Virus record (IMG/VR): IMGVR_UViG_3300021958_000042
Location: 20,668-84,667 of that record
DNA: 64,000 nt
Strand: one strand, 5' to 3'
Source of the DNA: a virus
Lineage: Duplodnaviria > Caudoviricetes
Made by a program: the position numbers and the translations under genes. The notes beneath the pieces were generated by a model. The model had not been told where the DNA came from. It was given only the letters and a program-made list of their open reading frames with translations, and did no database searches. Below, one piece after another: positions 5,371-33,274 of this stretch (position 1 is the stretch's first letter; each line of letters begins with the position of its first letter).

Positions 5371-8300
5371 TTAAGAGGTAAGAAGAGATGTATCTACATC
5401 AGTTGTATTGATTCCGTTACCACCTACCAATTGTAGAATTCTCATTCCATTACCATTGGCTTGAGTACTCATCATACCTTTATATATTCTTCTTTTATCA
5501 TTTGTTCCAGTAGAACTAAATCTATCACTTGATATGAGAGTATCTTGACCAACCGCTCCAGCTGCACAGAAAGATACAAGGTCTAATTCAGTTCCTGTAT
5601 ATAAGAACCTTTGAGTTCCTAATCTGTTTGGAAATTGAATTACTAATTGTCCAGCATCATTTAAAGATAACTGTTCCAGTGGATTTAGAACTGCATGTGA
5701 ATCGACTTCGTTAATACCAGCAAACACATGTCTATCCCATGGTTTTAATACATCCTTTTCTCTCACAACAAATCTTCTAAATCTTCCTTGAATATCTAAA
5801 TTCATTGCCTGTAGCTCTTCATCTTTTAATTCATCAATTTTGAATTCTGTCAAATAATTTCCAGAAATATCATAAACTCCTTGATATGCTAAAGAAGCGG
5901 TTCTTTCAGTAGTTTTTGAATTGAAATATGGAGTAAAATCTGAGAACAATATTGGAGATTCTGACGATTGATATAGACAATGAATTGGTTGTTGATCAGA
6001 AGTAAAATCTGGAGCGCCAGTCGTTGCATCTACATGTCTTTGAACAACAAAGAATGCATTATCATCTGATTGATTTGTAGATGCCTGATCTTTTAGATAC
6101 ATTGCCATACCATGATCTGCTATTGTTATAGTATATGCCATTGGATATTGACTTGCAATTGCTGGATTAGTTTTTCCAGTTCTTCTAAACCAACCCTTTT
6201 GCATTCTCAATTTACCATCATTGAATGGTGTATCTGCAACAAGTTCAGACGAAGTTCCAGACAAAAAGCTTTCCTCATATCTATATTCATTATCTAATAG
6301 TATACCTTTCGTAAGCGTTATACTTACTGGTATCGTTGGATTTGTAATTGTTGCCGAGTTTGTAAACGCAGTTGATAAACCAGTTTTGAGACCACCACCA
6401 CTCTCATAATGGGCCTCTCCAACTCTTCCAGCACGAATATTAAATCCGCTTTTAAGCTGCGAATCTAATTCAGCCCTATTGACAAACGGATTAATTAGAT
6501 GAGTAACAGATTCTTGATATCCATTAAATTGAGTTCTAATTCCACCCAAAAATCCTGGCTCTCTCAAATTCCCAGCTTTGATTCCATCTCGGCCTTCTAC
6601 TTGAGCAATGTTTCCATCCGAATTCAATTGAAATTCAGTTGCAACATGAACATTAAGATATTCAAAATTATTTGTCGCAATTGCTGCATCTCCGCTTGAA
6701 CTCGAAAGCTGTAAATGTGTAGTATTGATATATGGAGATGTTTCATTAACTTCTATGCCCCTAGATACATTAAATCTCACTCTCCAAGGCTGGTCTCCGT
6801 TATTACCAGAAATTGGTAAAGTTCTATCAGTTTCAAATACAAGAGGACCCATACTACGATCAGTAATATATTCGAAAGATTCTATTTTGAGTTCTTTGCT
6901 AAAGGTAGAAAACTCACTCCAATGTGTCAATCCGCGATTTGCCAAACCGTGTGTCGTATTTGGATGTATTTGAGATGCATCTTGATCAAAAGAAATTTGC
7001 GGGCCCAAAGGTCTATCATCAGCAGATACTACTTGTTGATAATATGAAACAAAATATGATGTTGCATTGTTTTCATCCAACCCAGTAAAAACTGACCAAG
7101 TTCCATTTACTGGATTTGCAAATGTTCCCAAGTCTCTAGATAGAGGAAATTGTAAACGGACTGCCGAAACATCTGTTGTGACGCCAAGTTGAATTTCAGC
7201 CAGATCTAGATCCAATGGATCTGCAACTCCGGCATTGCTTGCATCGATGAGAACATCTTCTGTGTAAAAATTAGAAACATCAGCAACAAATGCTGCTCTT
7301 GCTGGAAGGTCTGCAACTAAGAAACCGTTCAATCCATATTCTGCAGAAGTTGTATCTCCGATATTAACAGTAGTTGCTGTAAATGCCGAAGAATCTGTGC
7401 CTAAGAACCCATGAGTTTTTGATGTATCAGAAATTTTCATATAAGCAGTAGAGTTTCTATTATATTTAAGTGAAATGTAATTAGAACCAGCAACAACAGT
7501 CATATATGAGTTTATATAAGAATTTCCTCTCAATGCATTTGCAATATTTTCGGATAATTGCGCAGCATTTAAATTTTTAGGAGATGTATATGAAACTGTA
7601 ACATTTTTTACTGCTGCGGTATTTGTCAATTTATCTGCAGCTGCTTCGTCAATAACTCCAGTTAAGGTGATTTCAAACGTATCGGCAATATTTGATCCGT
7701 CTAAACCACGAATTTGAACTTCATGTACATATCCATTTGTATATGTGCTTCCAGTTATTTCTGTAGAACCGTCTGTTACTGTAGATGATGCGGTTGCTTG
7801 GGGAACAGTAAATATTGTTGGAGTATTTGAAAAAGAGGTTGTTGGTCTTTCAGTTCTTGTAACAGTACAAGTAAGATTGTGACCTATTTCCCTAGATTCA
7901 AATTCAAGTACTCCTACTCTATCTGGGTCTAAAACGACTTCAAATAATCCACCTTTAGGATCTGCAATATTAGTTTTCACCAATTCATCCAACACAGTTC
8001 TCGTAAATCCTTCAACTGAAGAATCGTTGCCAACTGTTACTGGAACTTGATATGTAACATTAGGAGCAGGAGATATTGAAGAATGAACAAATGAAAATGT
8101 GTAAATGTCTCCAATTTGGAAATTATTTTCTGTAAACGCCTGATCGAACCCAATCAAGAGTTCTCCTTTGTATTTTGATGGTTCAACAGTTCCTGATGGA
8201 AAAAAGAATTGATCTTTTAGATTTGAAATCCAAAAAGCATGCTTTACAGCTCCATCTGGCTGGACATCTCTTTTATAATGTCTCAATTCTGCTTTTGTAT

Positions 8301-9249
8301 TGACACCGCTTTCGGCGGCAGGTAAAAAAGAGACTCCTCTTCCTACTTTAGTGAGAAGTGCTAAAATTTTATTATATTCATTTTCATAAACTTTTTGAGA
8401 TAATGAAGGAAGTCCAACATATCCTGGCTGTGGCGCTTCGCCATCTCCTGTTTTTAGTTTAGTAGGCTTCGCCTTTTTCTTTAAAAAGTGGCCATTCGGT
8501 TGGTCTGAAGGCCTATCAAGAGTTGCTGCAGGGTCTCCAAACTTAACAACATCATCTACGGCTAAAGTTTGTGCAGAAGAAAGAGTTATCTGCGTGCCAG
8601 AGTTAATTGAAACGATAGTTGGGCCTGATGATACCACAGTTCCATTAATTTCTAATAAAGTTTCCCCAACGGATAATTGAGCTGTATTATAGAAATGTAC
8701 TACTGTATCGCTGGTAACTGCCGATTTAGAAAATACTGTTGTTTTCCAAACTGGAGAACCCCCCCGAAGGGCTGGATGTGGATTTAAGTATGCAAATAAT
8801 TCTGCATTTGGCCCAAGAATTTTTGTAAAATCTAATGATCCGGTGTATTCGTTTGGTTTCGCAATTTCCGTAGAAATTTCATCATGCCAATCAATATCAT
8901 TATATAAATCTTCAATAGCTTTAATTCTTCTGCTATATTCTCCATCCAATTTAAAATCTGTATAGGTTGGATTTGCTGTTAGTGCTGTAGGTTTATCTAC
9001 GCCGAAAGCGCCCGCAGATTGTGTCTGTGTTGAAGAATCATAATGCCATACAATAAATTCATCGATGAATTTTGTTAACTCTTCTTCTGTTATTACTAAT
9101 TTTGTTATTTGTGGGCCAACATCCACAAAGCCATTTGCAAGAAGATCATCAGACAACTGTACTAATAATGGCTTGAAAACTTCTCTTGTTGGGTCGTAAT
9201 TATATCCATCTAAATGGACTACTTCGTTTCTTGTTATTGATACGGACAT
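5371..9249 (-). CDS. 1292-aa virion structural protein, paralog family member P1
   Basis: Shares GRDGIK, GWFRR..YP.AY..DHG, FVVQRHV, PIHCLY, RFVVRE.DV.KPWD, EQLS, TQRF.Y..ELDL and GNGMRI blocks with the ORFs at 22470, 26999 and 31223. Confidence 0.7.
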   Translation of the reverse strand: MSVSITRNEVVHLDGYNYDPTREVFKPLLVQLSDDLLANGFVDVGPQITKLVITEEELTKFIDEFIVWHYDSSTQTQSAGAFGVDKPTALTANPTYTDFKLDGEYSRRIKAIEDLYNDIDWHDEISTEIAKPNEYTGSLDFTKILGPNAELFAYLNPHPALRGGSPVWKTTVFSKSAVTSDTVVHFYNTAQLSVGETLLEINGTVVSSGPTIVSINSGTQITLSSAQTLAVDDVVKFGDPAATLDRPSDQPNGHFLKKKAKPTKLKTGDGEAPQPGYVGLPSLSQKVYENEYNKILALLTKVGRGVSFLPAAESGVNTKAELRHYKRDVQPDGAVKHAFWISNLKDQFFFPSGTVEPSKYKGELLIGFDQAFTENNFQIGDIYTFSFVHSSISPAPNVTYQVPVTVGNDSSVEGFTRTVLDELVKTNIADPKGGLFEVVLDPDRVGVLEFESREIGHNLTCTVTRTERPTTSFSNTPTIFTVPQATASSTVTDGSTEITGSTYTNGYVHEVQIRGLDGSNIADTFEITLTGVIDEAAADKLTNTAAVKNVTVSYTSPKNLNAAQLSENIANALRGNSYINSYMTVVAGSNYISLKYNRNSTAYMKISDTSKTHGFLGTDSSAFTATTVNIGDTTSAEYGLNGFLVADLPARAAFVADVSNFYTEDVLIDASNAGVADPLDLDLAEIQLGVTTDVSAVRLQFPLSRDLGTFANPVNGTWSVFTGLDENNATSYFVSYYQQVVSADDRPLGPQISFDQDASQIHPNTTHGLANRGLTHWSEFSTFSKELKIESFEYITDRSMGPLVFETDRTLPISGNNGDQPWRVRFNVSRGIEVNETSPYINTTHLQLSSSSGDAAIATNNFEYLNVHVATEFQLNSDGNIAQVEGRDGIKAGNLREPGFLGGIRTQFNGYQESVTHLINPFVNRAELDSQLKSGFNIRAGRVGEAHYESGGGLKTGLSTAFTNSATITNPTIPVSITLTKGILLDNEYRYEESFLSGTSSELVADTPFNDGKLRMQKGWFRRTGKTNPAIASQYPMAYTITIADHGMAMYLKDQASTNQSDDNAFFVVQRHVDATTGAPDFTSDQQPIHCLYQSSESPILFSDFTPYFNSKTTERTASLAYQGVYDISGNYLTEFKIDELKDEELQAMNLDIQGRFRRFVVREKDVLKPWDRHVFAGINEVDSHAVLNPLEQLSLNDAGQLVIQFPNRLGTQRFLYTGTELDLVSFCAAGAVGQDTLISSDRFSSTGTNDKRRIYKGMMSTQANGNGMRILQLVGGNGINTTDVDTSLLTS

Positions 9250-9290
9250 TATTAATCAACTCCTATTAATTTATTAAAGCGTTTTTGTAT

Positions 9291-9298
9291 TATTTATA
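9291..9298 (-). promoter_or_regulatory. T4-type late promoter TATAAATA (for P1)
   Basis: Perfect TATAAATA on the minus strand in the intergenic gap, with an AGGAG RBS downstream. Confidence 0.75.
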
Positions 9299-9307
9299 AA
9301 AAAAAGA

Positions 9308-10240
9308 TTATACACCGTTAGTTATTATATCGATGCTATCTTGAGTTCCATTTTGAAAAGTAAAAGCAACAGTACCGCTAATTAGATTATTTCCTTGAAA
9401 CGTTGTGGTTAGTGGAATATCATCTCTAGTACCTGTAGTTTTTTTAAACTTTATAAATCCACCTACTCCAAAATTAGTTTCTGGGCGAAATTTTCCAGTA
9501 CCCGCATCATATGCCAACCCTACTATATTTGCCCCACTAACATCAGATGCAGAATGTCCAGCATATTCAAAGTTTTGTAAATTATCTTCTATAGTATTTA
9601 TATCTGTTAAAATGCCACCTTCCACAGAGATAGCTCTGGTTCTTTCTGCTGCAATTGCTGTATCTAACAATTCGACTGCGCTTACAACAGATGTAGATGT
9701 ATCTATATAATTTGTACCAGATGGTGTAATATAAGAGCCGTCTGTATTTAATCCAACTGCAAGCTCAATGGTATCTAATTCATTATATATTGGAGTTAGA
9801 TTTACGCTAACTGATGTTATTAGAGTGTTAGGATCGAATGATGTTTCTAATCCCCCACCGAATTCTATCTCTCCAGTAATGTTTCCACCGACAGTTAAAG
9901 CAGTTCCTACTGCCAACCATGCTTCGCCTGTTCCATAATAAAATGTTTTGAGAGATGTATCTATTGCAAATCTTCCAATGCTTGGAGTTTGCGCGTTTAG
10001 TGTTGCATAATCTGCATATTGGTCAAATCTATTAAGATTGAAATTATCACGCATTGTACTTTTAATAGAATCTAAAATTTCTTCATTAGATGCTGTATCT
10101 GGTAGGCCATTTGCGCTAGCGTCACCACCAGCACCAATTCCACCATCCAAAATTCCTACAAAGTCAGATTCTAAAAATTCTGCAAGTACTACATCACCAG
10201 TTGGTTGTACAACCGCCTTTACTGGAAACGCCTGTGCCAT
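9308..10240 (-). CDS. 310-aa structural protein with a short coiled-coil/loop module
   Basis: N-terminus resembles that of the 1724..5290 protein (PVKAVV..GD..LAEF...GG.GA). Contains the GLNTDGSY...NYI..STSV..AV.LLD module also seen in 37002..38165. Confidence 0.65.
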   Translation of the reverse strand: MAQAFPVKAVVQPTGDVVLAEFLESDFVGILDGGIGAGGDASANGLPDTASNEEILDSIKSTMRDNFNLNRFDQYADYATLNAQTPSIGRFAIDTSLKTFYYGTGEAWLAVGTALTVGGNITGEIEFGGGLETSFDPNTLITSVSVNLTPIYNELDTIELAVGLNTDGSYITPSGTNYIDTSTSVVSAVELLDTAIAAERTRAISVEGGILTDINTIEDNLQNFEYAGHSASDVSGANIVGLAYDAGTGKFRPETNFGVGGFIKFKKTTGTRDDIPLTTTFQGNNLISGTVAFTFQNGTQDSIDIITNGV

Positions 10241-10259
10241 TTATTTCTCCTATTTCTTA

Positions 10260-10267
10260 TATTTATC
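10260..10267 (-). promoter_or_regulatory. Candidate late promoter GATAAATA
   Basis: ATAAATA core in the gap between the PAAR gene and the 310-aa gene, with a GGAGAA RBS downstream. Confidence 0.55.
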
Positions 10268-10268
10268 T

Positions 10269-10559
10269 TCAACCGCCAGCAAATACATTACCAGAACCAT
10301 TGGCAACAGCAGATCCGCAAGCAACTGGATCTCCTATTCTTCCTATAGGTTTTCCGTTTGCATAGACAGTGCTTGAGCCACCACCAAGAACAGAACCATG
10401 ACACGAAGGTCGGGGATTGCAATGCACAGCCCACCCATCACCTTTTCTATGTACACCAATTCCATTGACAAATACATTTCCACTTCCGCCTGTATTATTT
10501 CTTGGCGGATATGCACCATGTCCTGTGCATGTGTCTCCTAATCTAGTTACAGCTGGCAT
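10269..10559 (-). CDS. gp5.4: PAAR-repeat spike tip protein (T4 gp5.4-like)
   Basis: MPAVTRLGD.CTGHG..., VFVNGIGVHRKGD...HC, VYANGKPIGRIGDPVACGS..A.GS.NVFAG: classic PAAR repeats with Cys/His metal ligands. Confidence 0.93.
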   Translation of the reverse strand: MPAVTRLGDTCTGHGAYPPRNNTGGSGNVFVNGIGVHRKGDGWAVHCNPRPSCHGSVLGGGSSTVYANGKPIGRIGDPVACGSAVANGSGNVFAGG

Positions 10560-13500
10560 AAACTGGATACCCCCTTATTTCTCTTATATCATCTGTGTTA
10601 TCGTAAAATGTTTTCTCATCTACATTAAAATTACAATTCAATTTAAAGTTTCCATTTTCATCTGATATATCTTCAAGGTATTTAAATCTATTGTCTTGTG
10701 TAATATCAATTGGAAATGTTTTCTTAAAATATTCTAAATCAATTGAATTTAAAACTCTATTATTTACAATATAATTATTAGAAAATTTAGTTTCTTTGAA
10801 CACAACTGAGTCTATAAATGCTTCATAATCATTTCTCTGTTCCAAATCGTTATATTCTCTAATTCCGATTAATAAATTCTTTTTATACAAATAATCTACA
10901 ATATCGATTTTGGAATCCCTATAGTCTTTTATTATCTCTAACATTTCTTCATCTATACTAGAATTATTTATATTAGGATCATATCTAAATTGTTCATCTT
11001 TTCTTCTAGACTCTAACCATTCACGCCGCGAGGCAAAATCAGTATCATCTATATCATCAGATTTATGTAAAAATAAATCTCTATCAAATGAGAAATTATT
11101 ATAAATCTTAAATAATACTGTAATTTCTTTTACTACTGCACCAGAATTATCTATCACAAAATCATCTACATAAAATGTTAAGTTATCTTCATTTTTAACA
11201 ACTTCTAAAACAACACTTTCGGATGTAGTAACTCTGGCAATAACTTCATTATCTATTCCTGTAGAATTGATATTGTCTAAAAGAGATTGATTGCTATCTC
11301 TTTTTTCGATCAATACTTCTTTTTCTTGAATAGTTTCGGCAAAAATTATTTGATTATCTAAATTTGCTATATTATTTGATAAAATAGAACTAGATGTGAT
11401 AGATACATCTTCTACTGTTCTCTCGACACGATTTATGTCTATATCTCCTATCAATCTTTCTATTTCATGTCTAATTATTGTTACTACTTCAGTTCCAGAA
11501 CCCAAATTAACTGATCTTTGAAATTCTCCTAACTTTGCTCCAACAAAAAAAGTAGTATCTCCTTGTGTAATCTCTTGGCCCGCAACAAATTCTCTTCCAC
11601 TATTATCAGTAGGAATTAAATCAATTGTTCCTTTTGTGATGTTTGTTCCAAGAATTTTTACAGAAAATTCTCTAGGAGAAATTGGATTGAAATCTGTATA
11701 ATCGTAATCTAAGCTTTCGTTGTGGGATATAAAGTTGCCTTCATTATCCGTAAACCCCTGTGTCTTTGTCCAATCTTCAAATGCATATTCTCTCAAAAAT
11801 TTATCTGTCTCTGATAGTGTACCAGATATAACCCCCTCTGTAGACAATTTAAGACAATCTGGTAATCTTCCAGAAGATTCATCAATTTCATATATGAAGT
11901 TGAAGTTTGAATTTTCTCTATTAAATCCCCACACTTCATTTTTAGTACTGGCCAAATCCAGATCCCATTCGACATCAGAAAACTCAAACAAAAAGCTTGA
12001 GTTTATATCAGTTACTTCTTGAGTTTCCTTGTATATTCCTGTCTCATGTCTACCAGAACGGCCTGGAGCAGCGAATCCTTCATTTTCTTTTCCATAATCA
12101 ATCTTTGAAGCTTTCATGAAATTGATGTTGAAACCACCCATGGGAATTGTCTCGTGGCCATAGGCATTTGAACCATCAGATCTAATATGTCCAGAGGTAA
12201 TTTTATCATAAAATGTTGGCTGGAATTTATTAACATCAAATATATTAGAAGATATTCCAATGAAAGAATCGAAGAAAAATTCTATCACTCTGTCAATTAC
12301 CCTAAAGTTTGGACGGAATATTTCTTCTAACATCTGTTTTCCAAAAATATTCGTTTTTGGCGGAACGATTGCAGAAGTATGTAAAAAGAATTGTTCTATC
12401 ATATAAGAAACATCAGTATTCTCAAGTTCAAAATTGCTAAATTTTAAATTAGAATTCCACATATCGATATCAACAAAAAACAATTTATGTATATATGTTT
12501 TATCTAAAGTTTCAGTATAGTATGGTAAAACTTTAAACTGCATATCTTTTGTATGTTCGAAGAATAATCCTTTCGCCAATTCGTATTCAATCATAGATAC
12601 GCTTCGATATAAACTCTTATCTAAAATATTAAATGTTTGTTTAAATTCATAAAATGGAGAAGGTGTAAATTCAGCTGCGTCAAAAGTTCTCGAATATTCT
12701 CTATTATCGAATGCAAAATCTTTTGCAATTTCCGAAAATCTTTTGAAATTGTCGGCAGAGTCTATATATTTTTGAAACCCATAATTAATTGGGATAGTTT
12801 TATCTCTTGGTTTTCCGATATAAAGTGATTTTGTAATATCTCTTAAATAATCAACAGGTCTAAAGAAATATAATCCTTTCTGAGTATCTAAAACTAGATC
12901 TTGTTCTGATAAGATATTTTTAGAAGAATTTAATTCATAACCATATTTTTTAGTTGTATTTAAGTCTGCCATACCAACAAACTCAGACAGAGTTAAATCT
13001 TTTAATCCAAAATCTATCCCTCCAACAAAATCATTTTGTTGATACTCAAAACTATATTTTATGTTCATCAACGAAACATCTATGGTGTTATCTATTATAC
13101 TTTCCTTAATAGAAAGACCGTCTGATTGACTTTCTATAATGGAAGAAGTTTTAGTAAACGATTCTATAAATTGTTTAAAAGTATCTGCCCCATCAATATT
13201 CTCAATAATTTTTTGTCTGTCAAACATTTCTGATGACGCTGAATTAAATTCCGATATAACATTGATTAAACTGAGGCCGCCATATAATTGTATATCAATA
13301 TTTTCTGTAAGATATTCTTGTCGAGCACCAGTAAATGGAGAAAACTCAAATGTAGTTTTCTTGGGCATCAAAATCATATCTAAATTTGTATATTCTAGAA
13401 TAGTTCCGCCATATAAAGAAGGCCTAATAAGATCAACAAAATCTTGATTGTCTTCTTCTGCATTATAGAGTTCGAATGTGTATGTTTTATATTTTTCAAC

Positions 13501-15411: not shown

Positions 15412-15417
15412 GTTTAA

Positions 15418-22395: not shown

Positions 22396-22406
22396 CGTAT
22401 CTCTAT

Positions 22407-22436
22407 AAAAAATAAGGGGAAGCTAATGCCTCCCCT
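22407..22436 (-). terminator. Rho-independent terminator
   Basis: Minus strand AGGGGAGGC-ATTA-GCTTCCCCT followed by TATTTTTT, lying between the P2 stop and the start of the acidic giant. Confidence 0.75.
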
Positions 22437-22437
22437 A

Positions 22438-22445
22438 TATTTATT
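22438..22445 (-). promoter_or_regulatory. Candidate late promoter AATAAATA
   Basis: ATAAATA core immediately 5' of the terminator hairpin on the minus strand. Confidence 0.45.
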
Positions 22446-22469
22446 TCAAATTTTAATCTTTAGAGATTA

Positions 22470-25400
22470 TCAAGAAAAAGTATTGTCTGCAATCGCTGCA
22501 ATATCTCTTGGAGTATAATCACTATATTGTGGTCTGATAGGTCCGCCTCTGGTTAAGAGGAAGATTCTCATACCATTGCCAAATGGTTTAGTTGACATCA
22601 TACCAACATATGTTCTGTGTGTTGCATTTGTTGTCGTATCAAACGCATCCGCACCATCTCTAAATGCAGTAGATGCAGTTGTAGCGGCCGCACCCTGTTT
22701 TGCATTATGCCAAGTATATGGCTGACGGAAGTTGAGCTTATCTCCATTTGAAGATACATGTTCAGCTCCAGGCGTATGTCCTGTTTCTAATGTACTTTCT
22801 TGTGCAGAGTCTAAGTCATACTTGGTTGCAGATGTTTTAATAATACCACCTTGAGTAGAACTATCAGCACCAGCCACACAAATCAAATCCATTTCTGCGT
22901 CACTATAGATAAATCTCTGTGATGCAAGTGGAGTTGGGAAGTTAAAGATAACTGTTTTATCTTGTGTGATAGATAACTGTTCAACAGGGTTGATACATGC
23001 AGGGCTGTCGACCTGTGGAATAACAGCAGAAACATGATAATCCCAAGGTTTAAACACATCATTTTCACGAACAACAAATCTATAGATGCCTTTAGCAACT
23101 TTATGAATGTCATTCCAGATAGAAGGAATATCTCTATCTTCTGGAACTGATACTAAGTATGTTGACTTACCTGTATCTCTTTCTTCAACATCATTATAGT
23201 TTTCATAAGAAAGTTTTACAACTGTGCCATTTTCGATTGGTTGGTTAAATGTCCATGTATCATCTGTAAGAGAATATGCATACATTGGTTTTTCAACACC
23301 AAAATATTCCAAACTGATATTTGTAGTACCAAATTCAACATTACCATCAGCATTAATAGTATAGTTTTGTCCAAGAACGGCAGCATCTGCTTCCGAACCA
23401 TCCACGAATACTTTAAGTCTGTTGATTTCGAACAATGGATTTGAGGCAGTTCCGCTTCTTCCATAGAAGTTTGTATACTGATTATTAAACCCAGCGCCTT
23501 GCCACGCATATTCATAGATAAATGTATCGTCTTCTGGGAATGTATCAATAACTGCTTCAATTCTCATGGCCTCACAAGTTGCCGAGGCATTTAAAGTGCC
23601 AGAAGTTTCGACAAGCGCCGCCTGATCTGCAGTAGTTACGATATCGCCGACTTTCATACTAATTACACCAGTGCCTGGCGTAGTCCACATTGTGAACACA
23701 CTGGTACTACCTACTGTTTGAGTTTCAAACCCGCTTTTCCCCGTAACAGCGGCTCCAGCCTGATCGGCATAATCGGTAAGAAATCCACTTGTAGCACCCC
23801 TTTGAGAATGTTGAGGTAATGGTACAATTTCTGCATCTGCCGAGGTGGTTGGTGGAGTTGTTAACGCATTTGGAGTTGCAGCAACAGCGCTTATAGAAGC
23901 ACCACCAGCATCAACTGTTGCAGTCATTAAAGTGTAGTGAACAACTTGAACTCTTCTTGAGCTAACCAAAGTTAGCGATTCTGGGGAAGTTGGAGTAAAC
24001 AAAGCAACACTTGATGCGATAGGAAGCTCTCTTGCGTCACCAGATGCACTTGTTGCTGGAGCTAACTCAGTTTTATCTAGAATTTTTATATCAGTTCTAG
24101 GATCTAAGTATGTATCAACTCCAGTAGAAGAACGATGTCTAACTCTATATACAGACAATCCAAGTCTTGCAGGGCCCTGCATTTGGTTTCTAGCAGCATT
24201 AAAGTTTGCTAAACTACCAGTAGTGAATGAGCCAGGATCGCCAACAGCCGCTGTTACAGAAGAATGTACATCTGAAGTCGCAGTTCTCGCGGCAACGGTA
24301 TTATCGAAAGCCGTAATATGCTGTCCGACTGGTACAAAAGTAGTTCCAAACGCGGAACCATAATTTAAAGGAAATTCAGTTCTTTGAGCGATATCTGTCG
24401 CGGTGGAGAAGTTTGAAATCTGCGCCGCGCTGGCAATTTCTGCATAATTCTGCTTAATGAGTGATGGTAGTGTTACCTGATCGTTAATAACTGTATATCC
24501 AGTAGTTGAGTTTGTTCCGAGGCTGCCAGCATCAGTCAACGGAATACCCGCTGTTGCTGATGTAGTTTTATATCCTGGCCCACCCTGATATGCTTGTTGA
24601 ATAACTTCAATTGGATTTGAGTCTGTTAAAATAGACTGTTCTACTGGAAGGCCTGCCTTCAGCTGTCTTCCATTCACATCAAACACTTGTAATTCGTCCA
24701 AAGCTTTTGATGTAATTGTAGTTTGTCCTGTTGCAGTATCAAAGTCTTCACTCACCTCTGCAAAGAAACCAACATTATAATTTGATGTTTCTTCTGGGCG
24801 AGTTGATGGAGAATATAAACAATGGACTGGTGATTTACCATCTTCAAATTCAATTCTACCTGATACATTGTTAACATGTCTCTGTACAACAAACCATGCA
24901 TAGTCATCATCTTGATCTACTGATGCTTGGTCAAACAAGAACAATCCAGTACCATGGTCAGTACATGTCAAACGATATGCGAGTGGATAACCACTTTCGA
25001 TATCATCTGTTGTTTTACCTTGTCTACGGAACCAACCAGATTTTGCTTTGTTTGTATCGTTAGAGAAGTTATAATAGATTTCGCTAAGTTCGCCAGGCTG
25101 TCTAAATACCGCCTGTTTAATACCGTCACGACCTTGTCCTTTTGTCAAATCTCCATTATCTTTGATTTGTAGTGCAGTTGCAATATTAACATAAAGATAC
25201 TCATCTCTACGGTCATAGAAGAAACGCATTCTCCATTTTTGAGGTTTACGCGCATCCTTGACTGGTTGAGTTAATGAAACTGTTGATGGAATGGCAACTG
25301 TTGCAGAGTTTACATCAGCTTTTGATGATAAAAGGTCTGTCGCTTTTTCAGATTCGACAATAAACATATCACCAATTCTATTAAGACAATCTTTTACTGC

Positions 25401-26930
25401 TCTATGGTCTTGTTGTCCATTTACAGCAATTGGAATTGGTTCTGATGAATCTGCATCTTGGAATGGATATATGATATTATATGGCTGAGATTCGAAATCA
25501 GACTTATTAATTGCCATTCTCCATTCGCCCTTTACATATACTGTTTTAGATGCACTATTAAAAGCATTTACATCTATTGTATCTTCCGTTGCACTATCTA
25601 ATTTTACAGTAACAACACCAGTAACTTCATCGACAGAAGAAATTAGTGCAGCACCTTTACCATTAGGTTCGATGATGCGTTTACCAACATCGGCAGAAGA
25701 CAAACCTCCAGCGACTGGATTTGCGGCTGTAGCATTGTCAAAATCACCAACTAAGGTTTTTCCAGAAATATCTGTTAATGTAAAAGTTCCATCTGCAGCG
25801 GCGGAACCGACAGTAGGGGCAGCTGCCCATGTCAATGTTGCGTTCTGCTGTTGTACAGATGTCCATGCAGAACTATAATAGTTTCCATATGGGTGTAAAC
25901 ATAAGTCTGTTGCAAGTGTTCTTAAAACACCATTTTGTGCTTTAGGGTCTTTAACAGTATCTACGAAATATTCTAATACGACTGTATCTCCAACTGAAAA
26001 AGATTCACTTCTCCAAGTTACTGTTCCGTAGTCTAATGCAAGCTGTTCTGCATCAACAACTGAACTTACTTTAATAACTAGATCTGGAGCAGAACCACCA
26101 ATATTACCCAATTGTGCTTCTGAGATTGTGATTTCATTTCCTACCAGATAGTCTTGGCCAAAGGTCAAAGGAACAACTTTAGTCACATTTCCTACTGCAT
26201 CGACAAACACTTGAAAAGACCCACCAGTTCCCGAAGAACCATTTACAACACCGTCTGGATCATTTCCTACTGCAACAGAAGTTGGAGTGACTAAATATAC
26301 CCCCCCACGATGTCCAGTAGTTCCAGAATCTGTTTCAACACCAGTTACAGCTCCAACGCCATCGTAAAAGGAGACAAAAAATTGATTTTTCGCCGGAGAC
26401 TCATCAACAACTGCAGTTGTAGGAATGGTAGAAGGATCATATCCTTGTCCAGAAACAGAAACATCTACAGAAACTACTCGTCCACTACCGTCAGTAGTAG
26501 CAGTTGCAGTCGCCTGTTTAAATGTACCAGTTGCTGGTTGGCCACCCCTAATTGTGACATTGAAAGTAGTGGATGGAGCATAACCCAAACCACCAGATAA
26601 TACTGAGATGGATTCGATACCACCAGTATTTGTGTAGGTGAAACCACCCAAGCTTGCTGGCTGGTTTCCATTCCTATATGTCTGTGTTAGTGGTGAAGTT
26701 ACTGTGGTAACTGTTCCACCAATAAACTGTCTTCTTTGCGAAGATAAAGAATATGGAGAAATTCTATCAAATTCTCCTTGAGCAGGGCGGCCTAGCCTTG
26801 TGAATGTTTGGTTAAAACTATTCAAAAATTGAAATTTCTGTTGATGCTTCTGTTGTTGCATCGAAACCATTTCATTTCTCTGAATAGAGAATCCACCTGA
26901 CATAAATTCTGTAGATAATGAAGTAGTCAT
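22470..26930 (-). CDS. 1486-aa virion structural protein, paralog family member P2
   Basis: FSIQRNE N-terminal motif, LATDLCLHP, KPQKWRMRF, GRDGIK, GWFRR, TDHG, DQDDDYAWFVVQRHV, PVHCLYS, RFVVRENDVFKPWDYHV, GNGMRI. Confidence 0.7.
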   Translation of the reverse strand: MTTSLSTEFMSGGFSIQRNEMVSMQQQKHQQKFQFLNSFNQTFTRLGRPAQGEFDRISPYSLSSQRRQFIGGTVTTVTSPLTQTYRNGNQPASLGGFTYTNTGGIESISVLSGGLGYAPSTTFNVTIRGGQPATGTFKQATATATTDGSGRVVSVDVSVSGQGYDPSTIPTTAVVDESPAKNQFFVSFYDGVGAVTGVETDSGTTGHRGGVYLVTPTSVAVGNDPDGVVNGSSGTGGSFQVFVDAVGNVTKVVPLTFGQDYLVGNEITISEAQLGNIGGSAPDLVIKVSSVVDAEQLALDYGTVTWRSESFSVGDTVVLEYFVDTVKDPKAQNGVLRTLATDLCLHPYGNYYSSAWTSVQQQNATLTWAAAPTVGSAAADGTFTLTDISGKTLVGDFDNATAANPVAGGLSSADVGKRIIEPNGKGAALISSVDEVTGVVTVKLDSATEDTIDVNAFNSASKTVYVKGEWRMAINKSDFESQPYNIIYPFQDADSSEPIPIAVNGQQDHRAVKDCLNRIGDMFIVESEKATDLLSSKADVNSATVAIPSTVSLTQPVKDARKPQKWRMRFFYDRRDEYLYVNIATALQIKDNGDLTKGQGRDGIKQAVFRQPGELSEIYYNFSNDTNKAKSGWFRRQGKTTDDIESGYPLAYRLTCTDHGTGLFLFDQASVDQDDDYAWFVVQRHVNNVSGRIEFEDGKSPVHCLYSPSTRPEETSNYNVGFFAEVSEDFDTATGQTTITSKALDELQVFDVNGRQLKAGLPVEQSILTDSNPIEVIQQAYQGGPGYKTTSATAGIPLTDAGSLGTNSTTGYTVINDQVTLPSLIKQNYAEIASAAQISNFSTATDIAQRTEFPLNYGSAFGTTFVPVGQHITAFDNTVAARTATSDVHSSVTAAVGDPGSFTTGSLANFNAARNQMQGPARLGLSVYRVRHRSSTGVDTYLDPRTDIKILDKTELAPATSASGDARELPIASSVALFTPTSPESLTLVSSRRVQVVHYTLMTATVDAGGASISAVAATPNALTTPPTTSADAEIVPLPQHSQRGATSGFLTDYADQAGAAVTGKSGFETQTVGSTSVFTMWTTPGTGVISMKVGDIVTTADQAALVETSGTLNASATCEAMRIEAVIDTFPEDDTFIYEYAWQGAGFNNQYTNFYGRSGTASNPLFEINRLKVFVDGSEADAAVLGQNYTINADGNVEFGTTNISLEYFGVEKPMYAYSLTDDTWTFNQPIENGTVVKLSYENYNDVEERDTGKSTYLVSVPEDRDIPSIWNDIHKVAKGIYRFVVRENDVFKPWDYHVSAVIPQVDSPACINPVEQLSITQDKTVIFNFPTPLASQRFIYSDAEMDLICVAGADSSTQGGIIKTSATKYDLDSAQESTLETGHTPGAEHVSSNGDKLNFRQPYTWHNAKQGAAATTASTAFRDGADAFDTTTNATHRTYVGMMSTKPFGNGMRIFLLTRGGPIRPQYSDYTPRDIAAIADNTFS

Positions 26931-26972
26931 TTATTGATCTCCTTTAGATGTATTATAATTTTGTTTTCTTTT

Positions 26973-26980
26973 TATTTATA
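26973..26980 (-). promoter_or_regulatory. T4-type late promoter TATAAATA (for P2)
   Basis: Perfect octamer in the intergenic gap, with an AAGGAG RBS downstream. Confidence 0.75.
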
Positions 26981-26998
26981 AAAACTTTTCTTTGTAAA

Positions 26999-29900
26999 TT
27001 ATTCACCAAGTACCGAGCCTGGAGCCTTTCCTTCAGTAACATCACTATATCTAATACTAGATCCTGTTACTTGCATGAAAATTCTCATACCATTTCCATC
27101 TGGAAGAGTTGAAACCATACCTTCATATTTTCTGGCATCTTTTCTCCAAATATATTTTGTTTGGTCAGGCCCATTATGTCCAGCATATCTAGTTGTTTGA
27201 TTTGCTGGCATTGCTGGAGTGGTAGTTGGAATATATTCTCCATTACCAAAACCCCCTGCAGGCCCGTTGATACCATCACTATCTCCATATTTGTTAATTT
27301 CAACATGTCCTGCTTGTGTAGAGAAGTCTGCTGAAGAAACACAAATCAAATCTAGTTCACTCTGAGGATAATAAAATCTTTGAGATGTGATTTGAGTTGG
27401 GAAGGAGAAAACAAAATTTCTGTCTTGTGTAATTGATAACTGTTCTTGTGGGTTAATAATAGCATGAGAGTCTATTTCATGCATTGTTGCTGATACATGA
27501 TAATCCCATGGTTTTAAAACATCCTGCTCACGAACAATAAATCTGTTGATAGTTTTAACTTCATTCATATTTGTCTCAGGAAAATTTCTATCTTCTGGCG
27601 TAGAAATTATATATGTATTTTGAGATGGATTCGAAGATGTATAGTTAACTAATGAAATAGAGAAGTTAGACATAGCTCTTGGTGCATGTTTAAATACTAA
27701 AGTTTTATTCATGAAATCGTAAATATATTCTTGAACTGTACTATCTGCATCTGTCCATACTATATCGCCAGGCAATAAACTAGTATATGCTTGTTTATTC
27801 GAAGATTTAGTAAGATTGCTTGTTGTGATAGTATAGCTTCCTGCATCTTTGTCTAAGAAAAATGCTCTTCCAGTTGCAGAGTTTACTATATTATTGTCAA
27901 TAGTTCCTGTTGAAGATTCTCCTAACAAATTAGGTACAACTGCAGCATCCTCTGCTGGTAGTTTGAAGTTCGAACCTAAAGTTTCTACTCCTGCTGCCTC
28001 GAGCATTTCCAAGAATCTACCTGCAGTAGTTGGATCTCCATTGACTACCCAATCATCATATGTTAGAACATATGCGGCGTTATCTCTTCTAACTTCCACA
28101 TCATCTAAAGTAACAACCATAGATTCCATTACCTTTGCAGCATTATTCTGCTGTGCATTATATAAAATATCTAACAGTGCAGAATCGCCTTCGGTGTAGT
28201 CGGATATAGAAATCGCATCTGGCACAGGCGGCACGCCCGGCGAGCCCGTGGTCGATGCGGATGCTTTAGCAAATGTTGAAACTCTATCTAAGAAGTTTTC
28301 TGGGAAAATTACATTTCTAGATGGTGATGGAGCCATATCATTTTGCTGAATCCAACTCGCAATCGGAGCTGTAGATGAAGTTTGTTCACTTCCATCAAGT
28401 GAAATTTCGAACAATCCATCGGCCGGGCTGGTTACGGACGGATCGCGATCAAGAGCATTTGGTGAATTAGATGCACCCATAGTGAATGCTGTTGCTCTTC
28501 TTCGTGGAAGACTATTAAATCCAGTGATTGCCAAATCAGTTGGTACTCTTGTTCTAGACATAATCATATCGCTGGAACTGCCTGGCAGGTCCGCGATGTT
28601 TGCGGTGTTGATGCCCGTTTGAGTAAAATCGTTGTTTGATGTTACATTTCCTGTTGCACTAGTTCCAATCAGAATTTGATCGCCAGGGTTCAGAAGGTTA
28701 AATCCTGTAGATGGATCTGCAGATGAAGTAAATGTCAATTCACCAGACACATTATTCCAACTCACAACGCGGCCTCCATTGTATTGAATATTTGGTGCCG
28801 AGCCTGTGCTCTCGGCAATAAACATGCCTGGAATAAGTTCCAACGCGGTAACTGAAGTTGGATCTAAATATATCACATATACAGTTTGTGACCAAAGAGT
28901 TTCAGACGCAGAACCCTGTGCGCCGGTAATACCTCTATAAAGATCTGATTTTACATCCGTATTATATACACCACCCCCATATCCAGATGCACCAGCCGAA
29001 TATCCAAAACTATTGAAGTCGATAGCATTTACCAATCCATTAAATATAGATTTGCTCTTATCAATCCATACAGTCGGGCCTTCTGTCTTGAAAATAGTTC
29101 CCAACGAATTCGCTACCGGCGCAGCAGGAGACAAATCTGCTAAATCGTCAGTCGAATAGTAATTACTTATAGAACTGATATCAACAGGGCGCTTCGCCGG
29201 AGAATACACACAGTGAACTGGGGTTTTCTCAGTAAATTCTGGTTGTCCTGTTGTTTGGTCAACGTGGCGCTGCACAACAAACCATGCATAGTCATCATCT
29301 TGATCTACTGCACTCTGGCCGTATAAAAACAATCCCATACCATGATCGGTACAAGTTATTCTATATGACATAGGATAAGTTTGCGTAATCTCATCAACTA
29401 CTTGAGGTCTTCTAAACCATTGAGATTTTGCAGTAGATATAGATAAATTTGCGCCTTTACCGATTGCCGGTTCTTTATATACATCACACAATTCTCCTGG
29501 CTCTCTATAAACTGGAGATTTGATACCATCTCTACCCTGTGGTTGTGATATGGACATATCATCTTTCAATTGGTAATCTGTCGCAACGTTAACTTTAATT
29601 TCATTGCTATTTTCCAACCAATCAAAACGAATTCTCCATTTCTGAGGTTTTCTTGACGCTGCTGGAGATAGACTATTTAAGAAATTTAAATTACTATCTG
29701 ATAACAAATCTACACCCTTTTCGGATTCTACCAGAAAATTATTTGTAATTCTTCTAAGCGCTGCCTTTACATCATCTAAGTGGTTGCTTGCAGGCATTGG
29801 ATGAATTAATCTAAAAGGTGTTGCAAACTCATCATTCTCTTGGAATGTTAAATTAAATACATCACCTTCTGTTATTGTAGACAATGCAGCTTTTCTTGCA

Positions 29901-31153
29901 TCTGTTGGTAATTCAATATCACTTCCCGATATGCTTTGAGCAGTCGTGATATTTGGTACTCCGCCCGTCTGTGGCCATATAACAAATCCATTCAATCCTG
30001 TAACACCATCTGATGCGAGTTGTGGAGCGCTATAATCCCAAACCGTATTTGAACCAAGGGAATCTATTTTCGGCCAAGAATTTGTGCCAGGCTGATCTGG
30101 GCCCAAACCTTTTGGCCCCACTAGAGCTCCATATGGAACATCAATTGTTTTTCCCCAATGATAAGCAATAACAAGATTTACAGCTGCCATGTCAGTAATC
30201 CATGTCATAGGCGTAGTAGAAGGATCTCTCTTTAATTTAAAAGTTGATGTTCTTGTAGCAACATCGCTGGATACTACATAATCATCTTTTGGTAAAACTC
30301 TACCATTCAAAGATACTCTAAATTCACCACTACCTAAATCACCTTCAATCAATGGAAAATCATCCATTAAAGTGATGTATGTGGTATCATCGGCCGGATC
30401 AATCGCTGAAAACCCAGTTCCAGCAACCGCGCCACTCATATCTTTTGTAGCAGTTTCCCGATGTTCAGTAACAACTTTCCACAACTGATCTGCCTGTCTT
30501 TGTGTTGGGAGTACTGTAGAACCATCATTGCCAAAATCGTGGTTATATCTTACTGAAACTGTATTTTTAAATCCTTCTCCTACATAATCTCCTTCGTTTA
30601 TTTCTTGGTCGCCAGTTGGACTTGCTGCAACAAAATCAGTATTATTAGAGAATTTTGATCTGAAGATTTCTGGAGTTTCGAATGGATGAATACACAAGTC
30701 GTGAGCTAATTGAAAAAATAATCCACCATCATTACCAGTAAATTTTTCCATTGCCTCAATATAATTAATGTTTAAAGTTTCGCCGGTGATAGGTTTTGCT
30801 GTTTCGCTAAACACTAAGGCACCAAATTCACCGATACCAGAAACATATTTTATGCTCCCTTCTCCTGCTAAAATCGAACCTTCTTCATATGAGTTTGCAG
30901 CCCACTCTTGAATTTCAGTAAAGTTTGCAGTCAAATTATTTTTGAGTATGTTTTTACCTTGGGTTCTGTCCAAAAACAGTCTCACACCACCCAATCTGAT
31001 ATCCCAATCCCAAGTCTTATCTGTGAAATCTGGTTTAGATCTCAACAAATATGTGTCTGTGCCGGAATTGGCATTATGTATTTCTTTCTGTGATCTATGA
31101 ATGACATCAACAATGTCATTTCTCTGAACACTAAATCCACTGGCAATAGGCAT
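26999..31153 (-). CDS. 1384-aa virion structural protein, paralog family member P3
   Basis: FSVQRND, LAHDLCIHP, KPQKWRIRF, GRDGIK, TDHG, DQDDDYAWFVVQRHV, PVHCVYS, RFIVREQDVLKPWDYHV, GNGMRI. Closest to P2. Confidence 0.7.
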   Translation of the reverse strand: MPIASGFSVQRNDIVDVIHRSQKEIHNANSGTDTYLLRSKPDFTDKTWDWDIRLGGVRLFLDRTQGKNILKNNLTANFTEIQEWAANSYEEGSILAGEGSIKYVSGIGEFGALVFSETAKPITGETLNINYIEAMEKFTGNDGGLFFQLAHDLCIHPFETPEIFRSKFSNNTDFVAASPTGDQEINEGDYVGEGFKNTVSVRYNHDFGNDGSTVLPTQRQADQLWKVVTEHRETATKDMSGAVAGTGFSAIDPADDTTYITLMDDFPLIEGDLGSGEFRVSLNGRVLPKDDYVVSSDVATRTSTFKLKRDPSTTPMTWITDMAAVNLVIAYHWGKTIDVPYGALVGPKGLGPDQPGTNSWPKIDSLGSNTVWDYSAPQLASDGVTGLNGFVIWPQTGGVPNITTAQSISGSDIELPTDARKAALSTITEGDVFNLTFQENDEFATPFRLIHPMPASNHLDDVKAALRRITNNFLVESEKGVDLLSDSNLNFLNSLSPAASRKPQKWRIRFDWLENSNEIKVNVATDYQLKDDMSISQPQGRDGIKSPVYREPGELCDVYKEPAIGKGANLSISTAKSQWFRRPQVVDEITQTYPMSYRITCTDHGMGLFLYGQSAVDQDDDYAWFVVQRHVDQTTGQPEFTEKTPVHCVYSPAKRPVDISSISNYYSTDDLADLSPAAPVANSLGTIFKTEGPTVWIDKSKSIFNGLVNAIDFNSFGYSAGASGYGGGVYNTDVKSDLYRGITGAQGSASETLWSQTVYVIYLDPTSVTALELIPGMFIAESTGSAPNIQYNGGRVVSWNNVSGELTFTSSADPSTGFNLLNPGDQILIGTSATGNVTSNNDFTQTGINTANIADLPGSSSDMIMSRTRVPTDLAITGFNSLPRRRATAFTMGASNSPNALDRDPSVTSPADGLFEISLDGSEQTSSTAPIASWIQQNDMAPSPSRNVIFPENFLDRVSTFAKASASTTGSPGVPPVPDAISISDYTEGDSALLDILYNAQQNNAAKVMESMVVTLDDVEVRRDNAAYVLTYDDWVVNGDPTTAGRFLEMLEAAGVETLGSNFKLPAEDAAVVPNLLGESSTGTIDNNIVNSATGRAFFLDKDAGSYTITTSNLTKSSNKQAYTSLLPGDIVWTDADSTVQEYIYDFMNKTLVFKHAPRAMSNFSISLVNYTSSNPSQNTYIISTPEDRNFPETNMNEVKTINRFIVREQDVLKPWDYHVSATMHEIDSHAIINPQEQLSITQDRNFVFSFPTQITSQRFYYPQSELDLICVSSADFSTQAGHVEINKYGDSDGINGPAGGFGNGEYIPTTTPAMPANQTTRYAGHNGPDQTKYIWRKDARKYEGMVSTLPDGNGMRIFMQVTGSSIRYSDVTEGKAPGSVLGE

Positions 31154-31181
31154 TAAAATCTCCTTTGTGTATTTTTCTTTA

Positions 31182-31189
31182 TATTTATA
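31182..31189 (-). promoter_or_regulatory. T4-type late promoter TATAAATA (for P3)
   Basis: Perfect octamer in the intergenic gap, with an AAGGAG RBS downstream. Confidence 0.75.
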
Positions 31190-31222
31190 AAAAAAAATTA
31201 GTCTTTATTTGTTTATTTTTTA

Positions 31223-33274
31223 TTATGTTCCAGAACCAACTGGATCATTTGAATCTATATTCGTGTCTGAATTAAAAATGTACTGGCCATTTACTAAAAC
31301 CATTATACGCATACCATTACCGAATGCTGCTGTTGAACGCATCCCCTGATACCTTCTTTTATCGTTATTTACACCATCATATAAATAAGTTGTCATAGGA
31401 ATATTGCTGCTCTCTGCGACCACCTCGGCAGAAGAGAAACAAATTAAATCTGTTTCTTCTTTTGGATACATAAATCTCTGCGTTGTCAATCCAGTTGGAA
31501 ATGTGATTACAAATCTATTTTCATCTGTGATGGATAATTGTTCAAGTGGATTTATAATTGCATTGCTATCTATTTGATGTCTTGTTGCAAACTTATGAAC
31601 ATCAGAAGGTTTTAAAATATCAAATTCTCTAACAACAAATCTCCAAATATTTTTGGCAGCTGCCTCATCACCTAAATAATCTTCTCTATCATGAGGGCTT
31701 AAAATATAAAAAGTTCTTGCATTATCTACTGAGTTTATATGATATGAGTTTCCCTGATCGTCAAATATTGTATCTATTTGATCAGCAGCAGTCTGTAAAT
31801 TTGCAGCCTGACTAGAAAAATAAACTCCAGCATCACTAGAATATGAAGATTCTCTAGAACATGAATATAAACAATGGACAGGAAATTTAGAACCTTCATC
31901 GTTTCTAGGCAATCCAGTTTCATTGTTTACAGTTCTTTGCAGTGCAAACCATGCATAATCATCTGCTTGATCTCCAGCAGCATCATCATACATGTAAAGA
32001 ATTAATCCTCTTTCTGTCATCGTAAGTCTATACGAAAACGGATATGTTCCTTCTAGTGTTGGATCAGTTTTTGGATATCTCTTGAACCATCCACCGCCTT
32101 TTTTCTTATTTCTAAATCTTATAGAACGATTATTAATATATTTGGTATAATTAGAAACATCTGCAGGCGCAGTAGCTTGTGCAGTGCTTCGCCCTGTTGT
32201 TGGCATATAAAATGTTGCTAGTGGATATTCAGAAAAAGTAAATGATGTAGATGTACCAGAACCACCATTCGCGGTGTCTCTTGTATTTGCAGCTGTTTGG
32301 TCAAGATAAAGAGGATAATAAAACGCTGGTACAGTTCCATATGTGTTTGTATCTGTTTCGGTTCCATATACATAATATGGCCCACTATTTGCAGGGTCTG
32401 CAGAAATTACAATATCTTCAAAGGTTAAATCTACCATTTCGCCAGGATTTCTTACAACTGAAGTATCAACTGTGGCTCCATTTTCTAATGTTATGATTCC
32501 GTCAGAAGAGAGTTGTGGAGATGTGATACTACCATCATTTAAAATTTGAGATGATGTTCCAGCATTTACTTTTAACCATCCATACATTGGATTTGGGATT
32601 CCCGAACTATTTTCCCAACCAGCAGATAATATTCCATTAAAAGTATAGCCAGGATGATATTGGTCAGGCACAAATGTTGTCTCATCAATTGTATTACCTG
32701 CTGAATATTGTGTTCCGCCTCGAGCAGACATTCTAAGATTTAATTGATATAACTCTTGAGAAAATTCTTTATCTCCAGTATTACCAGCAACATCATAATA
32801 CAATCTAGGGCGCAAATCAAGTTCAAACCTAATTCTATAATTCTGGTCAATACCTCTTGCTACTGCTCCACTCTTTGGAAGAATATCATCAGACGATTCG
32901 AATACCATAACATGTTGTTCTGGATCGATTCCTGCATTTTTTTGACTAAAATTAGCAACTCCAGAATATGGCCCAGAACCTGCTCCATTAGATGTAGATG
33001 GACGATTTAGAGAAACTTGTGTAAAAAATTGTTTATTAATATATGTGACAGGATTTGCAATTGTACTATCGACAAGTTCATTTCCAGCTATAGGATTTCC
33101 ATTATACATCGTCCAACTTGAAGTTAAATCTTGGGCCAGTGCCATCATTGCGCCACCAGACACAACTTCGCCACTGGATATCTCGCCAGCACCTTGTAGT
33201 GTAGTAAAAGAACTTCTTTGCCTCGACATACCATAACTAGTGAGTGTCGATGGGTCTACAAATCTTTGCGCCAT
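31223..33274 (-). CDS. 683-aa virion structural protein, paralog family member P4 (near-minimal scaffold)
   Basis: LAQDL, YRIRF, GWFKR..YPFSYRLT, DDYAWFALQR, PVHCLYS, RFVVREFDILKP, INPLEQLSIT, TQRFMY..ETDLIC, GNGMRI. Confidence 0.7.
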   Translation of the reverse strand: MAQRFVDPSTLTSYGMSRQRSSFTTLQGAGEISSGEVVSGGAMMALAQDLTSSWTMYNGNPIAGNELVDSTIANPVTYINKQFFTQVSLNRPSTSNGAGSGPYSGVANFSQKNAGIDPEQHVMVFESSDDILPKSGAVARGIDQNYRIRFELDLRPRLYYDVAGNTGDKEFSQELYQLNLRMSARGGTQYSAGNTIDETTFVPDQYHPGYTFNGILSAGWENSSGIPNPMYGWLKVNAGTSSQILNDGSITSPQLSSDGIITLENGATVDTSVVRNPGEMVDLTFEDIVISADPANSGPYYVYGTETDTNTYGTVPAFYYPLYLDQTAANTRDTANGGSGTSTSFTFSEYPLATFYMPTTGRSTAQATAPADVSNYTKYINNRSIRFRNKKKGGGWFKRYPKTDPTLEGTYPFSYRLTMTERGLILYMYDDAAGDQADDYAWFALQRTVNNETGLPRNDEGSKFPVHCLYSCSRESSYSSDAGVYFSSQAANLQTAADQIDTIFDDQGNSYHINSVDNARTFYILSPHDREDYLGDEAAAKNIWRFVVREFDILKPSDVHKFATRHQIDSNAIINPLEQLSITDENRFVITFPTGLTTQRFMYPKEETDLICFSSAEVVAESSNIPMTTYLYDGVNNDKRRYQGMRSTAAFGNGMRIMVLVNGQYIFNSDTNIDSNDPVGSGT

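Follow-up and report, generated by a model that had tools for sequence, protein, structure and literature searches.

Four paralogous phrog_12249 proteins with a common core and paralog-specific inserts in the structural operon of an uncultured marine T4-like phage

The subject of this study is a set of four large paralogous proteins, P1 to P4, encoded by an uncultured marine T4-like phage. The DNA analysed, referred to below as the window, is a stretch of 64,000 nucleotides (nt) corresponding to bases 20668-84667 of an 84.7-kilobase (kb) IMG/VR virus record (IMGVR_UViG_3300021958_000042). P1 to P4 share one conserved core, which belongs to the protein family phrog_12249, and this core is interrupted at equivalent loops by inserts that are unrelated between the paralogs. 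We consider it probable that the four proteins are distinct, non-redundant components of an appendage, either baseplate-peripheral or fibre-type, with loops that carry exposed, faster-evolving domains. According to this reading, P1 to P4 would be ancient duplicates that are made late in infection and serve as virion tail-appendage subunits. The core of about 330 amino acids (aa) would provide the subunit-to-subunit and baseplate contacts, and the large paralog-specific domains, placed in five surface loops of the core, would project outward and change more rapidly than the core itself.

A common core interrupted by paralog-specific inserts

An earlier reading of the window from its letters alone (the sequence-only reading) had described four open reading frames (ORFs) that carry ten conserved blocks in a common order. 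All four were recovered where it had placed them:

5371..9249, minus strand: P1, 1292 aa; core at 6463-6840 and 5389-6231, with an insert of ~750 aa (6841-9093) separating the L.DL and WR.RF blocks
22470..26930, minus strand: P2, 1486 aa; core at 24792-25250 and 22500-23111, large insert at 23112-24791, N-terminal inserts at 25251-26840
26999..31153, minus strand: P3, 1384 aa; core at 29189-29653 and 27032-27580, large insert at 27581-29188, N-terminal inserts at 29654-31078
31223..33274, minus strand: P4, 683 aa; C-terminal core (residues 395-673) at 31256-32092

The paralogy of the four proteins is far beyond chance. P4 matched P1 with an E value of 1.2e-56, P3 with 2.6e-31 and 1.1e-22, and P2 with 5.3e-26 and 1.2e-23. 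When the ten blocks were split into 12 sub-blocks and searched for by regular expressions, 12 of 12 were found, identically ordered, in each of the four proteins, with a single exception: the S(I/V)(Q/T)RN start block, described earlier as divergent in P4, is absent from that protein.

The bare scaffold is defined by short relatives, since every motif block is present in members of only 310-440 aa, in which the core is free-standing (60 of 60 short members); it measures about 330 aa. Mapping the profile of the short-member alignment (A3, 357 profile positions) onto P1 to P4 showed that the scaffold is broken in five loops, namely between blocks 1 and 2, between blocks 2 and 3, within and after block 3, between blocks 6 and 7, and between blocks 9 and 10. 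The main insert positions agreed with those first proposed. In P1 the large insert lies early, as judged by the 790-aa spacing between blocks 2 and 3. The distance from HC.Y to RF.VRE, measured from start to start, is 583 aa in P2 and 559 aa in P3 versus 71 aa in P1 and 80 aa in P4, and the insert between PVHC.Y and RF.VRE amounts to ~560 aa in P2 and ~536 aa in P3. P2 and P3 carry N-terminal inserts too, with spacings of 324 and 227 aa in P2 and of 141 and 357 aa in P3. P4, on the other hand, had been called nearly bare, and this description has to be modified. With 683 aa it is about twice the length of the bare core, and its N-terminal half holds three inserts of ~85-120 aa each; it is therefore the least decorated paralog rather than a nearly bare one.

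The inserts of different paralogs showed no similarity to each other, neither by blastp nor by profile-profile comparison of orthologue alignments. The sole profile matches between paralogs (probability 95-96%) fell on the L.DL core block and on the core edge beside RF.VRE. Within each paralog, near and distant orthologues have homologous inserts (hhalign probability 100%, E 1e-47 to 1e-97), indicating that the inserts are old, paralog-specific and vertically inherited rather than swapped modules. Rows that failed the regular expressions were dropped from this comparison (L029 and L030 at P2 site C, L053 and L057 at P3 site C, and others at site A2). Cassette swapping, which was considered as the origin of the inserts, was rejected on the basis of this homology.

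The set of four is also fixed. Exactly four core-bearing ORFs, in the same order and of similar sizes, were present in five of five long relatives, two of which are 100% complete by CheckV, and every related locus with full flanks retains the P4-P3-P2 tandem. In a tree of the core, from which two truncated rows were left out (L057 gene 4 and L051 gene 3), the marine copies form one clade that divides into four orthologous groups with support of 0.82-1.0, P2 and P3 being sisters. The suggestion that the subunits are interchangeable did not hold, as the four groups are old, their order is fixed and their inserts are inherited vertically. Among the distant marine relatives (L050-L057) we also observed a fifth, short P4-like paralog of 391-502 aa directly after P4. 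In its place, three of these relatives (L051, L052 and L055) have a giant ORF (2436-3398 aa) in which hmmsearch detects the family core; the best blastp match of this ORF is P4, over ~300 aa.

With regard to the rate of change, the expectation that the inserts are more variable than the core was borne out at both the protein and the nucleotide level. For P3, compared with a relative (L016) in which P4 is 80% identical, the inserts were 54-55% identical versus 74-82% for the core. For P2, likewise compared where P4 is 80% identical, the values were 58-68% for the inserts versus 84-98% for the core. Against the nearest relative, which is 93.3% identical overall, the 600-nt bins with the lowest nucleotide identities fell within the large insert of P2 (85.0%) and that of P3 (87.2%), the former being the most divergent stretch. 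A third low bin (33300-33899, 87.8%) corresponds to the C-terminal end of the neighbouring 1233-aa ORF (33278-36979); as seen from its sequence divergence, this hotspot suggests an exposed tip domain.

The phrog_12249 family and its tail-sheath label

P1 to P4 matched the hidden Markov model of phrog_12249 with E values of 8e-38, 3.7e-34, 1.1e-40 and 9.8e-48, respectively, and all 60 short relatives matched it as well. The scaffold system had been regarded as undescribed, but its core is in fact already known in the form of 320-400-aa proteins from the cultured jumbo phages Y3, AD1, PaBG, Lu11 and NCTB. When 1.84 billion representatives were searched with the family profile (E<=1e-3), 394 clusters at 50% identity were obtained, with lengths from ~310 to 2481 aa. 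Family members occurred in 65 phage records, each from a jumbo phage of the Y3/PaBG/Lu11 group; T4-like phages were not among them. As judged by gp6, the nearest cultured relatives of the phage studied here are the Kyanoviridae Melnitz, HTVC008M and S-SM2 (35-37% identity), and phrog_12249 had no match at E<=1 in these three phages or in S-SCSM1.

The jumbo-phage proteins (Y3 gp151/gp152, PaBG RefSeq gp225 and those of Lu11, AD1 and NCTB) correspond to the same core from end to end, with all ten blocks and E values of up to 6e-119 for phrog_12249, and they are usually side-by-side paralogs: there are two copies in Y3, two in Afa-NA1 and five in NCTB, compared with one in PaBG and four in the marine lineage. 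They differ from P1 to P4 in being bare cores, whereas P1 to P4 carry 350-1150 extra residues in their loops and belong to a T4-like phage of ~200 kb.

As the sequence-only reading had noted, P1 to P4 cannot be assigned to a Pfam family. Searches of Pfam, NCBIfam and PHROGs with the 60 short members returned phrog_12249 only, apart from weak matches to PF10934 in six of them (see below). One short member in addition showed a match to FAD/NAD-binding oxidoreductases (e.g. PF13450, E 3e-10), which probably reflects gene fusion or faulty assembly of a contig. Searching the PDB by sequence gave nothing, whether the query was P4, alignment A2, alignment A3 or the PaBG homologue, and feature matches of P4 in the ESM Atlas (<=0.81) were to unnamed viral clusters only. 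We found no paper on the function of phrog_12249 in a literature search that was not exhaustive.

The printed label of phrog_12249 is 'tail sheath', and RefSeq copies this label onto the 325-390-aa proteins of Y3, AD1, PaBG and Lu11. One alternative to an appendage takes the label at its word: P1 to P4 would be relatives of the sheath or of the sheath initiator, making up either a second sheath component or a dedicated layer where baseplate and sheath meet. Several sheath paralogs are used by the Afp/Pvc systems, and the conserved extreme N- and C-termini of P1 to P4, with inserts nested between them, may be taken to resemble the T4 gp18-type sheath (PF04984/PF22671/PF17482), which likewise has a conserved core built from its termini and variable domains in its loops. 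This resemblance is one of architecture only. The Pfam sheath domains PF04984 and PF17482 were absent at E<=0.1 from all four paralogs and at E<=1 from all 60 short members. By hhalign, the family gave a probability of 0.1% against 30 T4-type sheaths and of 0.7% against four jumbo-phage sheaths, compared with 100% (E 9e-39) for the positive control, in which the profiles of T4-type and jumbo-phage sheaths were aligned with each other.

The sheath genes proper are, moreover, found elsewhere. Of the five long relatives, the three whose records span the region concerned (two complete ones of ~200 kb and a third, 63%-complete one) contain a separate canonical sheath ORF far from the paralogs, and the canonical sheath ORF of a relative carries all three domains (PF04984, PF22671 and PF17482). 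Y3, NCTB, PaBG and Afa-NA1 have real sheath genes of ~550 aa that are distinct from their family members, and the two sheath proteins of PaBG identified by mass spectrometry are other gene products according to the published virion analysis (PMC7412058).

A further, weak pointer towards the alternative is the sheath-initiator domain PF10934, for which sub-threshold matches were obtained in six of 60 short members (best E 3.5e-4). Rescans of two sets of 10 members gave one match (E 0.25), located at core blocks 8-9, equivalent to P4 residues 565-615. The domain had no match in the record at E<=10, and the family gave an hhalign probability of 0.2% against a profile of 11 gp25 sequences. It should be underlined that the profiles for gp25, for the jumbo-phage sheaths and for the JBD30 proteins treated below are small (4-11 sequences; a homologue search with the gp25-like ORF of NCTB yielded 3 proteins only), and their negative hhalign results are therefore weak. 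A sheath identity finds no support, given the missing Pfam domain, the hhalign probabilities of 0.7% or lower and the separate canonical sheath of the relatives, and we regard sheath-related P1 to P4 as unlikely. The name 'tail sheath' appears to be wrong, and on the tests made, phrog_12249 is a catalogued but uncharacterised family that has been mislabelled.

Evidence for a tail appendage

The view that the conserved scaffold, with its unrelated inserts at equivalent loops, belongs to a virion protein of the baseplate or fibres was supported by the genomic context. P1 to P4 are located between the wedge genes and the fibre genes, in a minus-strand operon together with gp48, gp53, gp5, gp25, gp6, gp7-like and gp8-like genes, and they account for ~14.5 kb of the structural operon of the phage. 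The start codons of P1, P2 and P3 were each found to be preceded by an TATAAATA motif of their own, as claimed earlier, at a distance of 29-43 nt:

9291..9298, minus strand: TATAAATA, 42 nt upstream of the P1 start
26973..26980, minus strand: TATAAATA, 43 nt upstream of the P2 start
31182..31189, minus strand: TATAAATA, 29 nt upstream of the P3 start

This motif is the T4 late-promoter consensus, and by analogy with T4 the three copies may function as promoters and confer late expression. The motif is not enriched in the window as a whole (10 found versus 8.2 expected), so that its support comes from placement in short intergenic gaps and not from its number. DNA nearly identical to P3-P4 was detected in 20 runs from 12 studies, both estuary and marine, and contigs at least 95% alike came from four RNA libraries of four studies, one of which was DNase-treated; this fits expression.

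Evidence from an isolated virion is provided by PaBG. The PaBG family member (RefSeq gp225), when read from its second methionine, has a calculated mass of 34,777.74 Da. In Table 1 of PMC7412058, a protein called gp261, with a mass of 34,778.16 Da and the entry 'Unknown', appears among the 14 Coomassie-visible virion proteins. Two neighbouring proteins of that study, gp257 (57,162.97 Da) and gp263 (18,908.47 Da), match RefSeq gp229 and gp223 in both mass and spacing. From mass and gene order we infer that RefSeq gp225 is the virion band gp261, and, by analogy with this homologue, P1 to P4 would be incorporated into the virion as well.

The proteins of siphovirus JBD30 offer a possible model for how such subunits might be used. 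JBD30 gp47 and gp48, named 'tail fibre forming proteins', form heterodimers, and stacks of these heterodimers make up lateral arms of the baseplate with which the type IV pilus is gripped (Valentova et al. 2024, PMC11445458). They are encoded by adjacent genes after the tape measure gene, have 318 and 307 aa and both belong to phrog_687; gp47 is present in PDB entries 8RK3/8RK5. Their size is like that of the bare core (310-440 aa), and like many members of the family they are adjacent diverged paralogs. The unit size and the diverged neighbouring paralogs thus fit the idea of a brick, although they do not prove it. The JBD30 bricks differ in being without large inserts and in having no sequence or profile similarity to the family, phrog_12249 having no match in JBD30. 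A JBD30-like order of tape measure gene followed by bricks could not be shown either, Y3 gp154 being only a 'tail protein' of phrog_14098. A brick-arm mechanism for P1 to P4 is, by this analogy, plausible but somewhat short of an even chance.

P1 to P4 also hold the place in the gene order that gp9-gp12 hold in T4, that is, after gp6-gp7-gp8. The sequence-only reading had gone further and proposed that they take over the role of gp9-gp12. The gp9/10-N (PF07880) and gp11 (PF08677) domains were undetectable in the two complete relatives, with a positive T4 control, and neither domain was among the Pfam matches of P1 to P4 and the short members. This leaves room for the proposed takeover, but the evidence is one of absence only. 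Comparison of the family by hhalign with the single sequences of T4 gp8-gp12 gave probabilities of 0.2% or lower, and that with T4 gp8-gp19 was likewise negative, single-sequence templates being of low sensitivity. It should also be noted that two fibre proteins encoded in the record just ahead of the window (L011 2757-4472 and 11843-13465) match the C-terminal part of phrog_677, a gp9-type connector family that carries the label 'baseplate wedge tail fiber protein connector' (E 5e-20 and 4e-21).

A more far-reaching version of the appendage model, which we put forward tentatively, is that a large and abundant clade of marine T4-like phages has replaced gp9-gp12 with a hetero-oligomeric arm or ring of four brick-type subunits stacked in fixed order, each with exposed domains of its own, so that every arm would bear eight or more independent, fast-evolving surface modules. 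A common building block might then underlie the appendages of JBD30, of PaBG/Y3 and of the T4-like phages.

Several points weigh against an appendage of this kind. The identification of PaBG gp261 comes from mass and gene order, with no named accession. The contigs from RNA libraries demonstrate presence only and do not prove transcription, and bins without cover are uninformative. The hhalign probability between the family and JBD30 gp47/gp48 was 0.2% or lower, compared with 96% between the gp47 and gp48 profiles themselves, and phrog_687 at E<=10 was found in none of four genomes that hold the family (two ORFs in JBD30).

Another explanation is that each paralog acts on its own, as an independent receptor-binding fibre, spike or enzyme. 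Three residues, E550, D609 and R656 in P4 numbering, were invariant in all 202-204 aligned members, and N575 was asparagine in 200 of 202; the stretch from E550 to R656 corresponds to about 31307-31627 in the window. Judged by conservation, the invariant E550/D609/R656 could constitute a salt bridge buried in the protein or else a site for binding or catalysis, and an independent enzyme would use them as an active or metal-binding site. The divergence hotspots in the inserts would suit independent fibres, and JBD30 gp47 has been classified in the nitrilase superfamily (PMC11445458). Nevertheless, no enzyme family was detected in Pfam or NCBIfam, the one oxidoreductase-like member looks fused or mis-assembled, the charged residues are equally compatible with a salt bridge, and the four paralogs are kept together in all five long relatives. 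We consequently give this explanation little credence.

It is similarly improbable, and was rejected as the leading explanation, that P1 to P4 are the 'hairs', the whisker-like tail-decorating fibres of 'hairy Myoviridae': Lu11, Y3 and AD1, which are among the matches, have been reported as such phages (PMC6143709), Erwinia, Dickeya and Pseudomonas jumbo phages of this group make up most of the other matches, and the PaBG homologue is present in amounts that give a Coomassie band, but PaBG has been described as a typical A1 myovirus whose tail end bears small appendages, Rak2-like hairy phages were not among the 65 matched records, the correlation comes from a single clade, and the genes for P1 to P4 lie amid baseplate and fibre genes and not beside the sheath. 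The reading that remains best supported is that of four appendage subunits, in which P1 to P4 would assemble as a hetero-oligomer and the inserts may be displayed outward or contact the host.

Operon context and wider significance

Nearly all large ORFs of the window are on the minus strand and together constitute one structural operon. In the order of transcription it contains the following genes, all on the minus strand:

First: tail-tube cap (gp48-like), gp53-like wedge protein, phrog_350 tail protein
Second: gp5 hub/lysozyme, gp25, gp6, 1952-aa gp7-like protein, gp8-like protein
Third: 2313-aa phrog_358 protein, 387-aa protein, 1233-aa protein, then P4, P3 and P2
Fourth: 2325-aa acidic repeat protein, 1622-aa fibre-like protein, 310-aa protein, P1, 1188-aa structural protein

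Further downstream, outside the window, the record encodes additional fibre-type proteins. The 387-aa ORF (37002-38165, minus strand) had no PHROG match, and its nucleotide identity to the nearest relative was 99% versus an operon average of 93.3%.

Some observations were also made on the phages that carry the bare core. In the region inspected, Alcaligenes phage Afa-NA1 (L015, PV550095, 78 kb) has the gene content and order of PaBG-type jumbo phages, comprising two genes for sheath proteins, one for a 1335-aa tail protein, one for a ligase and two for family members; this record may be a partial or chimeric assembly. Salmonella phage Sen-NF (PV359490) gave a tblastn match with a score identical to that of Afa-NA1. 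In Y3, three proteins of 210-231 aa in the gp157-gp154 region (L009 638-6663) match parts of the 1335-aa 'tail protein' family phrog_14098 or phrog_13325, and they look like fragments or paralogs of the neighbouring 1335-aa gene.

The phrog_12249 family is widespread, yet it has neither a solved structure nor a Pfam model. Correcting its label matters for the automatic annotation of phages, since the name 'tail sheath' spreads into RefSeq. If the four paralogs do belong to one decorated appendage, they would represent a compact example of how host-contact surfaces are diversified by loop insertion into a fixed block, and they would show how an outer baseplate can be built without gp9-gp12 in T4-like phages outside the Enterobacteria.

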